Of a stretch of 11,131 bases of DNA, positions 8,912 through 11,105 are shown piece after piece. How positions within the stretch are numbered: position 1 is the stretch's first letter; each line of letters starts with the position of its first letter. A program made the position numbers and the translations under genes. Source of the stretch: a virus; the UHGV virus genome UHGV-0072311; one strand, 5' to 3'. The notes below the pieces were generated by a model. It was given only the letters and a program-made list of their open reading frames with translations, had not been told where the DNA came from and searched no databases.

Positions 8912-8957
8912 TCGCTTTGTCAGCGACGTAGGACGAATGTCCATTGTGAAAAGAGCG
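8912..8957 (-). promoter_or_regulatory. nutR-like site: boxA-like CGCTCTTTTC and boxB hairpin UCGCUGACAAAGCGA
   Basis: Seen on the - strand: boxA-like CGCTCTTTTC (rc of 8948-8957) just after the cro stop, and the hairpin TCGCTGACAAAGCGA (rc of 8912-8926). The GACAA loop in a 5-bp GC stem matches the P22-type boxB as I recall it, not lambda boxB. The 21-nt boxA-boxB spacing is longer than in lambda. Confidence 0.5.
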
Positions 8958-8964
8958 GTGTTAC

Positions 8965-9165
8965 TTATGCAGTTGTTTTTTTGTTACTTGGGAAGGGCTT
9001 TATTTCTTCCGCATAAACGCTTCCATCAGCGTTTATAGTTAAAAAAATCTTTCGGCCTGCATGAATGGCCTTGTTAATCGCGCTTTGATATACGCCGAGA
9101 TCTTTAGCCGTCTTGGTTTGCCCAAAGCGTATTGCATAATCTTTCAGGGTTATGCGTTGTTCCAT
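8965..9165 (-). CDS. cro: Cro repressor (lambda-type)
   Basis: 66-aa product essentially identical to lambda Cro as recalled ([64 protein letters not shown]). SD AAGGAGG lies upstream. Confidence 0.95.
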
Positions 9166-9191
9166 ACAACCTCCTTAGTACATGCAACCAT

Positions 9192-9255
9192 TATCACCGC
9201 TAGAGGTAAAATAGTCAACACGCACGGTGTTAGATATTTATCCCTTGCGGTGATA
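9192..9255. promoter_or_regulatory. Lambda right operator OR1-OR2-OR3 with divergent pR (- strand) and pRM (+ strand)
   Basis: Seen in sequence: the 17-bp operators at 9192-9208 (OR1, TATCACCGCTAGAGGTA), 9216-9232 (OR2) and 9239-9255 (OR3) match lambda operators. OR1 has one base (T at 9201) that differs from the lambda sequence I remember (C). Confidence 0.9.
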
Positions 9256-9265
9256 GATTTAACGT

Positions 9266-9979
9266 ATGAGCGCAAAAAAGAAACCATTAACACAAGAGCA
9301 GCTTGAGGACGCACGTCGCCTTAAAGCTATTTATGAAAAAAAGAAAAATGAACTTGGCTTATCCCAGGAATCTGTCGCAGACAAGATGGGGATGGGGCAG
9401 TCAGGTGTTGGTGCTTTATTTAATGGCATCAATGCATTAAATGCTTATAACGCAGCATTGCTTGCAAAAATTCTCAACGTTAGCGTTGAAGAATTTAGCC
9501 CTTCAATCGCCAGAGAAATCTACGAGATGTATGAAGCGGTTAGTATGCAGCCGTCACTTAGAAGTGAGTATGAGTACCCTGTTTTTTCTCATGTTCAGGC
9601 CGGGATGTTCTCGCCTGAGCTTAGAACCTTTACCAAAGGTGATGCGGAGAAATGGGTAAGCACAACTAAAAAAGCCAGTGATTCTGCATTCTGGCTTGAG
9701 GTTGAAGGTAATTCCATGACCGCGCCAACAGGATCCAAACCTAGTTTTCCTGACGGGATGTTAATTCTGGTTGACCCTGAGCAGGCTGTTGAGCCAGGTG
9801 ATTTCTGCATAGCCAGACTTGGTGGTGATGAGTTTACCTTCAAGAAACTGATCAGGGATAGCGGACAGGTGTTTTTACAACCACTAAACCCGCAATATCC
9901 AATGATCCCATGCAATGAGAGTTGTTCCGTTGTGGGGAAAGTTATCGCCAGCCAGTGGCCAGAAGAGACGTTTGGGTGA
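9266..9979 (+). CDS. cI: CI repressor (lambda immunity)
   Basis: 237-aa product near-identical to lambda CI as recalled, covering the N-terminal [24 protein letters not shown] and the C-terminal LexA-like autocleavage domain. A few positions may differ. Confidence 0.95.
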
Positions 9980-10010
9980 TTGTTTTATTTTTCACGTAAT
10001 AGGATGATTT

Positions 10011-10772
10011 ATGACACAGTTTCAACTTGCATTAATCGCTAGAGAAGTTGATGGAGAAGTCATCCATCTTCGCACCAAAGACGGATACATCAATGCCACC
10101 GCGATGTGCAAGTCTGCGGGGAAGCTACTTGCTGACTATACACGACTAAAAACAACACAAGATTTTTTTGATGAATTATCACGCGATATGGGGATTCCCA
10201 TATCGGAGTTAATTCAATCATTTAAAGGCGGAAGAGCAGAGAATCAAGGGACTTGGGTTCATCCAGACATCGCAATTAATTTAGCTCAGTGGCTATCTCC
10301 AAAATTTGCAGTGCAAGTATCGAGATGGGTGCGTGAGTGGATGTCAGGTGAAAGAGCGCCTGCCGAACTCCCTATCCACCTTAAGCGGTATATGACAAAC
10401 CGAGGCAGAGTTCCTCATACGCACTTTTCTATGCTTAATGAACTGACGTTTAACTTGGTTGCGCCACTTGAACAGGCCGGATATACGCTGCCAGAAAAAA
10501 TGGTCCCTGATATTTCAGAGGGTAGGGTTTTCTCGCAATGGCTCCGTGACAACCGGGGGGTTGAGCCGAAGACATTCCCAACATATAACCATGAGTACCC
10601 AGATGGCCGGACATTCCCGGTACGTCTATACCCAAACGAATATCTTGCAGATTTCAAACAACACTTCAACGAAGTGTGGCTGCCTCAGTACGCTCCTAAA
10701 TATTTTGCTGAACGAGACCAAAGGGCATTGACGTTGATTGAGAAAATCATGCTACCTGACCTTGATTCCTAA
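10011..10772 (+). CDS. KilA-N-domain protein in the cI operon, at the position lambda uses for rexA/rexB
   Basis: 253-aa ORF starting 32 bp after the cI stop with SD AGGA. The N-terminal ~115 aa fit the KilA-N pattern (GYINATAMCKSAGKLLADYTRLKTTQDFFDEL...GTWVHPDIAINLAQWLSPKFAVQVSRWV). I recognise no family for the C-terminal ~135 aa. A strong terminator follows. Confidence 0.75.
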   Translation: MTQFQLALIAREVDGEVIHLRTKDGYINATAMCKSAGKLLADYTRLKTTQDFFDELSRDMGIPISELIQSFKGGRAENQGTWVHPDIAINLAQWLSPKFAVQVSRWVREWMSGERAPAELPIHLKRYMTNRGRVPHTHFSMLNELTFNLVAPLEQAGYTLPEKMVPDISEGRVFSQWLRDNRGVEPKTFPTYNHEYPDGRTFPVRLYPNEYLADFKQHFNEVWLPQYAPKYFAERDQRALTLIEKIMLPDLDS

Positions 10773-10780
10773 ATGTTATT

Positions 10781-10807
10781 CCCGGCCACAGAGCCGGGTT
10801 TTCTTTG
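10781..10807 (+). terminator. Intrinsic terminator ending the cI operon (timm-equivalent)
   Basis: Seen in sequence: CCCGGC-CACAGA-GCCGGG (10781-10798) followed by TTTTCTTTG. Confidence 0.7.
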
Positions 10808-10958
10808 CCTCACCCCCCCCACCTAAAGACACATAACCAAATGTATTTATTGAAAAATAAATAGATACAACTCACTAAACATCGCAATTCAGATCTCTCG
10901 ATCACCTCCCAAGCCACTCAACCCTGCAAAAAATAAATCCATATAAAAAACATACAGA

Positions 10959-11027
10959 TAACCATCTGCGGTGATAAATTATCTCTGGCGGTGTTGACAT
11001 AAATACCACTGGCGGTGATACTAAACA
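10959..11027 (+). promoter_or_regulatory. Lambda left operator OL3-OL2-OL1 with promoter pL (-35 TTGACA, -10 GATACT), oriented toward the window end
   Basis: Seen in sequence: ACCATCTGCGGTGATAAATTATCTCTGGCGGTGTTGACATAAATACCACTGGCGGTGATACT matches lambda OL/pL as recalled. The N-leader begins downstream, and the window ends before any N gene. Confidence 0.9.
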
Positions 11028-11090
11028 CATCAGCAGGACGCACTACTCACCAGGGCGGTGAATATACAACGATTCAAATATGAATCTACG

Positions 11091-11105
11091 GCGCTGACAA
11101 AGCGC
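11091..11105 (+). promoter_or_regulatory. nutL boxB hairpin GCGCUGACAAAGCGC (P22-type)
   Basis: Seen in sequence: a perfect 5-bp stem with a GACAA loop in the pL leader. It is identical to the P22 boxB-left sequence as I remember it and has the same loop as the nutR hairpin at 8912-8926. No clear CGCTCTTA-type boxA was found upstream. Confidence 0.55.

Follow-up and report, generated by a model that had tools for sequence, protein, structure and literature searches.

The question raised by this locus is to which N antitermination system a lambda-type repressor switch belongs when the RNA hairpins at its edges are not those of lambda, and where switch and hairpins were joined. The window analysed here is the whole 11,131-nucleotide stretch of the virus genome UHGV-0072311, which an initial annotation had described as a lambda immunity core flanked by P22-type boxB hairpins. 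We found the region to be a lambda-type repressor switch lying between two RNA hairpins of a P22-related (H-19B/HK97-type) N antiterminator, and it is very probably the early control region of a lambdoid prophage, assembled from two exchangeable modules, immunity and N-nut.

The cI gene (9266-9979, + strand; Pfam HTH_3 and Peptidase_S24) encodes a product identical to lambda cI at 234 of 237 residues (98.7%), and the product of cro (8965-9165, - strand; Pfam Cro, E 8e-34) is identical to lambda Cro at 64 of 66 (97%). Matching to the lambda operators, together with the annotation of phage mEp234, placed OR1 (9192-9208), OR2 (9216-9232) and OR3 (9239-9255) with pR and pRM; OR2 and OR3 are exact lambda operators and OR1 differs at one position. 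OL3 (10960-10976), OL2 (10980-10996) and OL1 (11004-11020; + strand) are all exact, so that with near-identical cI and Cro and six operators, five of them exact, the switch is of the imm-lambda type, as had been proposed. The pL -35 (10994-10999) and -10 (11017-11022) elements were carried over from the mEp234 annotation and the transcript start, at 11029, was assigned by homology (all + strand). The slot of lambda rexA/rexB is occupied by a BstA-family (KilA-N) gene (10011-10772, + strand; Pfam KilA-N, PADLOC BstA E 2.5e-20 and a precomputed BstA_C match), which is cargo of the immunity core and stands outside the N-nut circuit. A small open reading frame overlapping OL and pL (10902-11030, - strand), listed as hypothetical in PhiR5_2, was regarded as spurious.

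Hairpins had been claimed on both sides of this core, and both were read on the sense strands with GACAA loops. The nutL boxB (GCGCU-GACAA-AGCGC; GCGCTGACAAAGCGC, 11091-11105, + strand) starts 62 nt past the pL start, at +63, and is identical to P22 boxB-left, the nutL of P22 (NC_002371) containing the same 15-mer. The nutR boxB (UCGCU-GACAA-AGCGA; TCGCTGACAAAGCGA, 8912-8926, - strand) lies 39 nt past the cro stop codon and upstream of cII, and is identical to the nutR boxB of H-19B, 933W-type phages, HK97 and mEp234. The boxA and boxB annotation used for comparison was that of GenBank EF120460, in which both hairpins are annotated as the respective boxBs. There are exactly two copies of a 13-nt core, CGCTGACAAAGCG, in the window, one per strand, and both lie on the sense strand of their own promoter (pL or pR); in shuffled controls allowing up to two mismatches the mean was 0.28 matches, with at least two matches in 5 of 200 shuffles. 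For either site the fold is a GACAA pentaloop on a stem of 5 bp (-8.5 and -6.4 kcal/mol for nutL and nutR, in that order), and the closing pair, G-C in nutL and U-A in nutR, differs on both sides, which preserves the stem. The nutR fold is thermodynamically unremarkable (z = -0.25 over 91 nt, z = -1.5 for the hairpin alone), and its assignment is made on sequence identity and position. Each hairpin has the 5-bp stem and the purine-rich pentaloop starting with GA of a lambdoid nut site, one on the pL transcript ahead of N and the other on the pR transcript, after cro and before cII, with the sense strand used in both cases. An Rfam search of the nut regions returned no match, as expected since no Rfam family matches boxB or nut.

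That a GACAA-looped boxB is the ligand of a P22-type N had been given as background in the initial annotation, and this was borne out: the RNA bound by the P22 N peptide in PDB 1A4T is identical to the nutL boxB of the window (PMC11480772). Compared with the 1A4T boxB (GCGCUGACAAAGCGC), nutL agrees at 15 of 15 positions and nutR at 13 of 15, both differences making up the compensatory U-A closing pair, and the GACAA pentaloop of the P22-type boxB is present in both.

The remaining parts of the two nut sites differ between the sides. In nutR, a boxA (CGCTCTTTT, 8949-8957, - strand) has one mismatch to CGCTCTTTA, aligns with lambda boxA and is annotated as boxA in EF120460, whereas nutL has no CGCTCTT(T)A-like match within two mismatches on the + strand from the pL start to boxB (11029-11090). 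The nutL 'boxA' of EF120460 corresponds to CGCACTACT in the window, a poor match that we do not consider a credible boxA; in this nutL departs from both lambda and P22. The N protein of H-19B is reportedly independent of NusB, S10 and boxA, a property that, if it extends to this module, would account for the absence of a boxA from nutL. Between boxA and boxB of nutR a spacer hairpin (GGAC-AUUC-GUCC, 8931-8942, - strand) was found by folding, its sequence conserved in H-19B, and two hairpins have been mentioned for the nutR site of that phage (PMC3526286). The GGAC arm could alternatively pair with a GUCC just 3' of boxB. Folding also gave a spacer hairpin in nutL (GAUUCA-AAUA-UGAAUC, 11071-11086, + strand) and, beyond boxB, an N-leader hairpin (CCAAAG-UGAA-CUUUGG, 11111-11126, + strand) whose position is conserved in lambda and P22 by alignment.

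As the N gene lies beyond the window end, its start being placed about 140 bp past position 11131 from relatives, its identity was inferred from those relatives. A record identical to the window was not found; the best matches (PhiR5_2, and ML35 and other prophages) are 99.2-99.7% identical over 7011-11131, and positions 1-3240 diverge from PhiR5_2. In these relatives N is a protein of 127 aa that starts MTRRTQFKGNSRSRRRER, contains the arginine-rich motif GNSRSRRRER and is of the H-19B/HK97 type, being 98% identical to the N proteins of H-19B and HK97. The PhiR5_2 protein belongs to Pfam PF25694 (N_peptide; 57.5 bits against a cutoff of 27.9, residues 2-127), a family built around P22 gp24 (152 bits), and a search with it for PF11438, the lambda N family, gave no match at E up to 0.01. 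The relatives' N is accordingly a member of the P22 N family by its PF25694 and not PF11438 assignment. Specificity for a GACAA loop cannot be deduced from the arginine-rich core alone, because RRRER is as like that of lambda as that of P22. Searching the PDB by sequence with the 127-aa N gave no meaningful match, so no solved structure for this type of N was found in that way. Experiments with H-19B bear on it: the N of H-19B is active on the nutR/tR1 of that phage both in vivo and in vitro (PMC3526286), readthrough of terminators dependent on N has been demonstrated for this essentially identical pair of nutR and N (PMC3526286, PMC4499122), and antitermination by H-19B N is abolished by R3H, S11F, R15C, R15P and R18P (PMC3526286). 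R3, S11, R15 and R18 are all present in the relatives' N.

One joint had been placed between cro and nutR, the other between pL and nutL, and alignments to lambda, P22 and H-19B-type sequences upheld both placements and mapped the breakpoints at which lambda homology ends. On the right, lambda-type records match the window over 8951-9170 (query 72-291) and Stx/H-19B-type records over 8880-8972 (query 1-93); the overlap, 8951-8972, takes in the last codons of cro with the stop, extends into boxA and is common to both types of phage. On the left, lambda-type matches stop at 11045-11061 and H-19B-type matches start at 11025-11030, around ATCAGCAGGACGCA, the 5' end (about 16 nt) of the pL transcript (about 11029-11045, + strand), which is common to lambda, P22, the 933W type and the window. 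Past both joints, the sequence follows the nutR/cII and nutL/N modules of H-19B and 933W-type phages at about 98-99% identity. Over 93 bp the window nutR is 97.8% identical to that of H-19B (AF034975) and 933W-type phages, and for nutL with N, taken from PhiR5_2, the identity to 933W-type phages is 99.3%. The right flank aligns with the cII regions of Stx2 phage I and H-19B, and its H-19B/933W-type cII (8530-8826, - strand; Pfam Phage_CII, E 1e-25) is only 31% identical to lambda cII.

Comparison with known phages gave the same division. In H-19B (AF034975) and 933W-type phages, whose N-nut system has been characterised experimentally (PMC3526286, PMC4499122), both boxBs are identical to those of the window and the adjacent nut sequences and N leader are nearly so, but what lies between their nut sites is unrelated, with cI, cro and operators of the 933W/H-19B type, and boxA is CGCTATTTT in H-19B and Stx2 phage I in place of the nutR boxA of the window. 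Lambda has the same layout (pL-nutL-N; pR-cro-nutR-tR1-cII), a near-identical immunity switch, a nutR boxA and a conserved pL 5' leader and N-leader hairpin; its boxBs, however, are GCCCUGAAGAAGGGC in nutL and GCCCUGAAAAAGGGC in nutR where the window has the GACAA type, and its 107-aa N (MDAQTRRRERRAEKQAQW) belongs to PF11438 (N36), with Trp18 in the arginine-rich motif. The wild phages HK97 (NC_002167), mEp234 (EF120460) and HK106 (EF120461), which have lambda immunity, show the same architecture as the window at 95-97% identity: they share with it the lambda-type cro, OR, cI and OL/pL, the nutR (boxA and TCGCTGACAAAGCGA), the nutL GCGCTGACAAAGCGC, the 127-aa N and the H-19B-type cII. Their replication genes differ from those of the window, and so does the cargo between cI and OL, which is gp48/gp49 in HK97, hicAB in mEp234 and the BstA-family gene in the window. 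The combination of lambda immunity with H-19B-type nut sites is an ordinary lambdoid mosaic that has been described before; it is annotated in mEp234 and HK106, and each junction is present in about 2% of complete E. coli genomes. The records EF120455-61 are said to come from a paper by Degnan et al. (2007).

The type of N and boxB was also found to change beneath one and the same core. An identical BstA-bearing core of lambda immunity is accompanied at five loci by lambda N (PF11438) and GAAGA/GAAAA boxBs and at three by a PF25694 N and GACAA boxBs, and among these five and three loci no mixture of N family and boxB type was seen. As the core is found with lambda N and lambda boxBs too, a change of N type goes with a change of both boxBs.

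The 15/15 identity of the nutL boxB to P22 boxB-left, and, at the C-terminus of the relatives' N, 67% identity with gp24 across 30 aa, might suggest that the flanks came from P22 itself, in a recent lambda x P22 recombinant carrying P22 gene 24 and P22 nut sites. This is scarcely credible, as outside boxB the nutL region is unlike that of P22, in which a boxA (CGCTCTTTAA) stands 10 nt upstream of boxB without a spacer hairpin; nutL of the window has no boxA and both of its nut spacers have extra hairpins. Both P22 boxBs are GACAA-looped, yet the P22 nutR boxB, ACCGCCGACAACGCGGT, has a stem unlike that of the window, so that the comparison with reference P22 boxBs held for nutL and not for nutR. 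The prediction of a P22-type N past the window end likewise stood as to family and not as to type: the relatives' N and gp24 have in common an N-terminal FxGN[AS][KR][ST]RRxER and a C-terminal LPxVAxYAAGxRKSKQxTAR, but at 127 aa the former is 27 residues longer than the 100-aa gp24 and only 39% identical to it. Neither the whole nut site of P22 (boxA about 10 nt upstream, no spacer hairpin) nor a gp24-like N was found, the P22 immunity region (c2/cro) differs from that of the window, and the flanks are 98-99% identical to E. coli phages of the H-19B and 933W types. Direct P22 origin is refuted for nutL, nutR and the relatives' N, and the N-nut module is, judged by its sequence, of the H-19B/933W/HK97 type, a sister to P22's own.

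Two further readings would deny the module a function. A stem of five base pairs is weak and the z-score of the nutR fold unremarkable, so the hairpins could be chance or generic small structures (terminator stems, repeats) with no role in antitermination; we consider this most improbable, given two exact 13-mers that are correctly oriented and occupy the canonical positions past pL and past cro, a closing pair whose two bases differ in a compensatory way, identity to H-19B sites in experimental use, and the strict co-variation of boxB type with N family across loci sharing one immunity core. Alternatively, the source prophage might have lost or replaced N, leaving H-19B-type nut sites orphaned in a non-functional circuit. 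The window does stop before N, the gene caller listed no N in one relative (L013), and the left arm of EC2641 is decayed; but direct translation of L013 gives an intact 127-aa N reading frame, all of the matches listed that start at query base 1 (the nutL boxB end) extend through N, and PhiR5_2 was deposited as a complete phage genome with E. coli K-12 MG1655 as host, which makes a loss or replacement of N very unlikely.

With a matched H-19B-type N-nut module as the preferred reading, the circuit may be outlined by homology, RNA binding and antitermination being taken over from the published H-19B experiments. The inner module, from about 8951-8972 to about 11029-11045, comprises cro, OR1-3, cI, the BstA gene replacing rexAB, and OL1-3 with pL; the outer module comprises nutR (boxA, spacer hairpin and boxB) and cII on the right and, on the left, nutL (spacer hairpin and boxB, no boxA), the N leader and, beyond the window end, the predicted 127-aa N. 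Inactivation of cI would allow pL and pR to fire, and the nascent transcripts would carry the GACAA-loop hairpins, which N is predicted to bind. N with NusA and NusG would then render RNA polymerase resistant to termination; on the right the polymerase would pass tR1 and the terminators beyond it to reach cII, the replication genes and Q, and on the left it would continue into the recombination genes. The modules were probably joined by recombination in two short shared lambdoid sequences, one reaching from the cro stop to boxA and the other forming the 5' end of the pL transcript.

Immunity specificity (cI, Cro and operators) is separable from antitermination specificity (N and boxB), and N, nutL boxB and nutR boxB are three parts that need to match and that travel together. 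The locus is a clean textbook case of lambdoid modularity, of small significance beyond correct annotation. Linker or boundary sequences have been proposed earlier for lambdoid phages. Tentatively, and with rather more doubt than confidence, we suggest that the two joint sequences (8951-8972, and 11029-11045, conserved even in P22) may serve as preferred recombination linkers. Whole immunity cassettes, together with defence genes such as BstA, would on this view move between phages that differ in N specificity, and nutL, nutR and N would remain a matched set. Even if correct, the idea would amount to a refinement of those proposals, and the BstA core with lambda-type or H-19B-type N could then offer a natural system in which to measure exchange. 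A lambda-immune prophage of this kind has the N-nut specificity of the Stx phages H-19B and 933W, and this shared specificity, together with the BstA gene in the rex slot, may bear on interactions between co-resident prophages.

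The lambdoid prophage early region fills the window, oriented opposite to the usual lambda map. On the minus strand lie the Q antiterminator gene (700-1218), cII (8530-8826) and cro (8965-9165), with nin-region genes, a DnaC-like loader gene and an O-like gene in the interval from Q to cII; on the plus strand lie cI (9266-9979), a KilA-N ORF (10011-10772) and OL/pL (about 10960-11029, firing rightward off the window end). Identity to lambda was 234/237 for cI and 64/66 for Cro, and the lambda operators OR2, OR3, OL1, OL2 and OL3 were matched exactly and OR1 with one mismatch, confirming the lambda-like immunity core described in the initial annotation (cI, cro, OR1-3 and OL1-3). 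The OR1 difference (9192-9208) is a single base, TATCACCGCTAGAGGTA versus TATCACCGCCAGAGGTA in lambda. In the slot between cI and OL, where lambda carries rexA and rexB, the window encodes the 253-aa KilA-N protein, which has a match in its C-terminal half to BstA, an abortive-infection defence family (PADLOC BstA, E 2.5e-20); the precomputed Pfam annotation gives a BstA_C hit, and our own Pfam scan gave only KilA-N. At the start of the gene, BstA loci are reported to have a DNA element, 'aba', that confers cognate self-immunity (PMC8585504). The identical KilA-N protein accompanies several different immunity and N modules.

Flanking this core, the nutL boxB (GCGCTGACAAAGCGC, 11091-11105, plus strand) and the nutR boxB (TCGCTGACAAAGCGA, reverse complement of 8912-8926) were found to fold into 5-bp stems closed by a GACAA pentaloop (-8.5 and -6.4 kcal/mol, respectively), so that sequence, strand and fold agree with the two hairpins as first annotated. 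Only the closing pair sets them apart, G-C in nutL and U-A in nutR, a double, stem-preserving change. The 13-nt boxB core has exactly two occurrences in the window, one on either strand, and both lie on the sense strand of the neighbouring early promoter; shuffled sequences averaged 0.28 matches when up to 2 mismatches were allowed. The nutR site has a boxA, CGCTCTTTT, at 8949-8957, and in nutL (11029-11090, plus strand) no boxA was found within 2 mismatches of the consensus. The GenBank nutL 'boxA' of phage mEp234, CGCACTACT, is a weak match. Each nut site also has an extra spacer hairpin (GGAC-AUUC-GUCC in nutR, GAUUCA-AAUA-UGAAUC in nutL). Neely and Friedman, in 2000, reportedly described dyad symmetries in the nut spacers of the Stx phage H-19B, the N protein of which is said to need no boxA, NusB or S10; such independence and such dyads would fit the nut sites seen here. 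Two hairpins are mentioned for the H-19B nutR site (PMC3526286).

The link drawn between a GACAA-loop boxB and the N protein of P22 holds for the left boxB and for the loop: the nutL of P22 (NC_002371) contains a 15-mer identical to GCGCTGACAAAGCGC, and in structure 1A4T this RNA is bound to the P22 N peptide (PMC11480772). The P22 nutR boxB, ACCGCCGACAACGCGGT, shares the GACAA loop but has a different stem, and outside boxB the window sites differ from those of P22, where boxA CGCTCTTTAA lies 10 nt upstream of the nutL boxB, in having no nutL boxA, extra spacer hairpins and the nutR boxA CGCTCTTTT. In H-19B (AF034975), by comparison, both boxBs and the compared surrounding sequence are identical or nearly so to the window, HK97, mEp234 and HK106 show 95-97% identity across both nut sites, and phage PhiR5_2 (PV340546), 99.7% identical to window 8500-11131, has a nutL-to-N segment with 99.3% identity to 933W-type Stx2 phages and 97.5% to HK97. 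These matches place the nut sites in the H-19B/933W/HK97 type; the description of a mosaic circuit is accurate and the inference drawn from it essentially right, with the term 'P22-type' in need of qualification. Prophages of E. coli ML35, G1/2, G6/7 and G8 are also 99.7% identical over 8500-11131. The arrangement is already known from the sequenced phages HK97, mEp234 and HK106, two of them with annotation, and is common in E. coli; the mEp234 record (EF120460) annotates pL, pR, OL1-3, OR1-3, boxA and boxB of nutL and nutR, and N for this arrangement.

As N lies outside the window, it was read in relatives. The PhiR5_2 N gene starts about 140 bp past the window-end position and encodes 127 aa (MTRRTQFKGNSRSRRRERLKAKALANG...LPNVAIYAAGYRKSKQLTAR), with an identical start and C-terminus in three more prophage loci carrying the same immunity core. 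This protein is 98% identical to H-19B N and HK97 N and, in global alignment, 39% to P22 gp24 and 30% to lambda N. It scores 57.5 bits (residues 2-127; cutoff 27.9 bits) against PF25694 (N_peptide), the family built around gp24, which itself scores 152 bits; the lambda-type N proteins of sister loci fall in PF11438. In these relatives the predicted 'P22-type' N stands at the level of the Pfam family, but the protein is H-19B/HK97-like. It shares with gp24 an N-terminal FxGN[AS][KR][ST]RRxER and a C-terminal RNA-polymerase-binding end, and its arginine-rich motif (ARM) core, RRRER, is equally close to lambda and P22, so loop specificity does not follow from the core alone. In vivo as well as in vitro, H-19B N acts as an antiterminator at H-19B nutR/tR1, an activity abolished by R3H, S11F, R15C, R15P and R18P and by alanine replacement of 12-RSRRRER-18 (PMC3526286); all the residues concerned are present in the 127-aa N. 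From established knowledge of N and the published H-19B experiments, N would bind boxB through its ARM, recruit NusA and NusG and render RNA polymerase resistant to termination.

The recombination joints had been placed between cro and nutR and between pL and nutL, and both placements are correct. On the right, lambda-type records in the phage collection match 8951-9170 and Stx/H-19B-type records 8880-8972, with only HK97, mEp234, HK106 and PhiR5_2 matching throughout; the two ranges share 22 bp, 8951-8972, a stretch that begins in the last cro codons, takes in the stop codon and reaches into boxA, and this is the crossover zone. The nutR boxA is CGCTATTTT in H-19B and Stx2 phage I but the more consensus-like CGCTCTTTT in the window, HK97 and mEp234, which fits a crossover inside boxA. 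On the left, lambda-type matches stop at 11045-11061 and H-19B-type matches start at 11025-11030. The pL transcript opens with the 13 nt ATCAGCAGGACGC, which the window has in common with lambda, P22 and the 933W type. Both joints thus fall at short sequences that lambdoid phages conserve.

Many genomes have the exact 253-aa KilA-N protein beside a cI and cro of lambda type. Five loci (L010, L014, L015, L017 and L018) have the core flanked by lambda N and lambda cII, with boxBs GCCCTGAAGAAGGGC and GCCCTGAAAAAGGGC; three (L012, L013 and L016) have it flanked by the 127-aa N and two GACAA boxBs, and among these eight none mixed one N type with the other boxB type. In E. coli D5, identity to the window is ~98-100% between about 8981 and 11050, and the sequence on either side is unrelated. 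The co-variation and the D5 limits are direct evidence for exchange of the immunity core and the N-nut module as units, with N, nutL and nutR remaining matched. Among 5426 complete E. coli genomes, 118 have the lambda-cro/H-19B-nutR junction and 111 the lambda-pL/H-19B-nutL junction.

Compared with PhiR5_2, the closest phage, the window is 98-99.7% identical from 3241 to its end, with short patches only in 1-3240, so that the Q/nin end is a further mosaic segment of different source; the PhiR5_2 nin region is annotated with HigB/HigA-type genes not obviously present in the window. At 3396-3596 (minus strand), Rfam gave C4 antisense RNA (74 bits) and isrK (75 bits), with a C4 a1/b1 target at 42 bits, just under the gathering score. 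These RNAs lie directly upstream, in the sense direction, of an ORF6N/P22_AR_C antirepressor-like gene (2664-3341, minus) and an ANT/KilAC gene (1867-2595, minus). Together they look like a P1/P7 immI-like secondary immunity module, an antirepressor-control module placed among the nin genes of a prophage with lambda immunity. A DUF4145-domain ORF (4516-5262, plus), which lies within the rightward operon but runs against it, is likely a moron. Downstream of Q, where lambda has the pR' leader, Rfam matched the STnc100 sRNA strongly and over its full length (163-368, minus; 143 bits).
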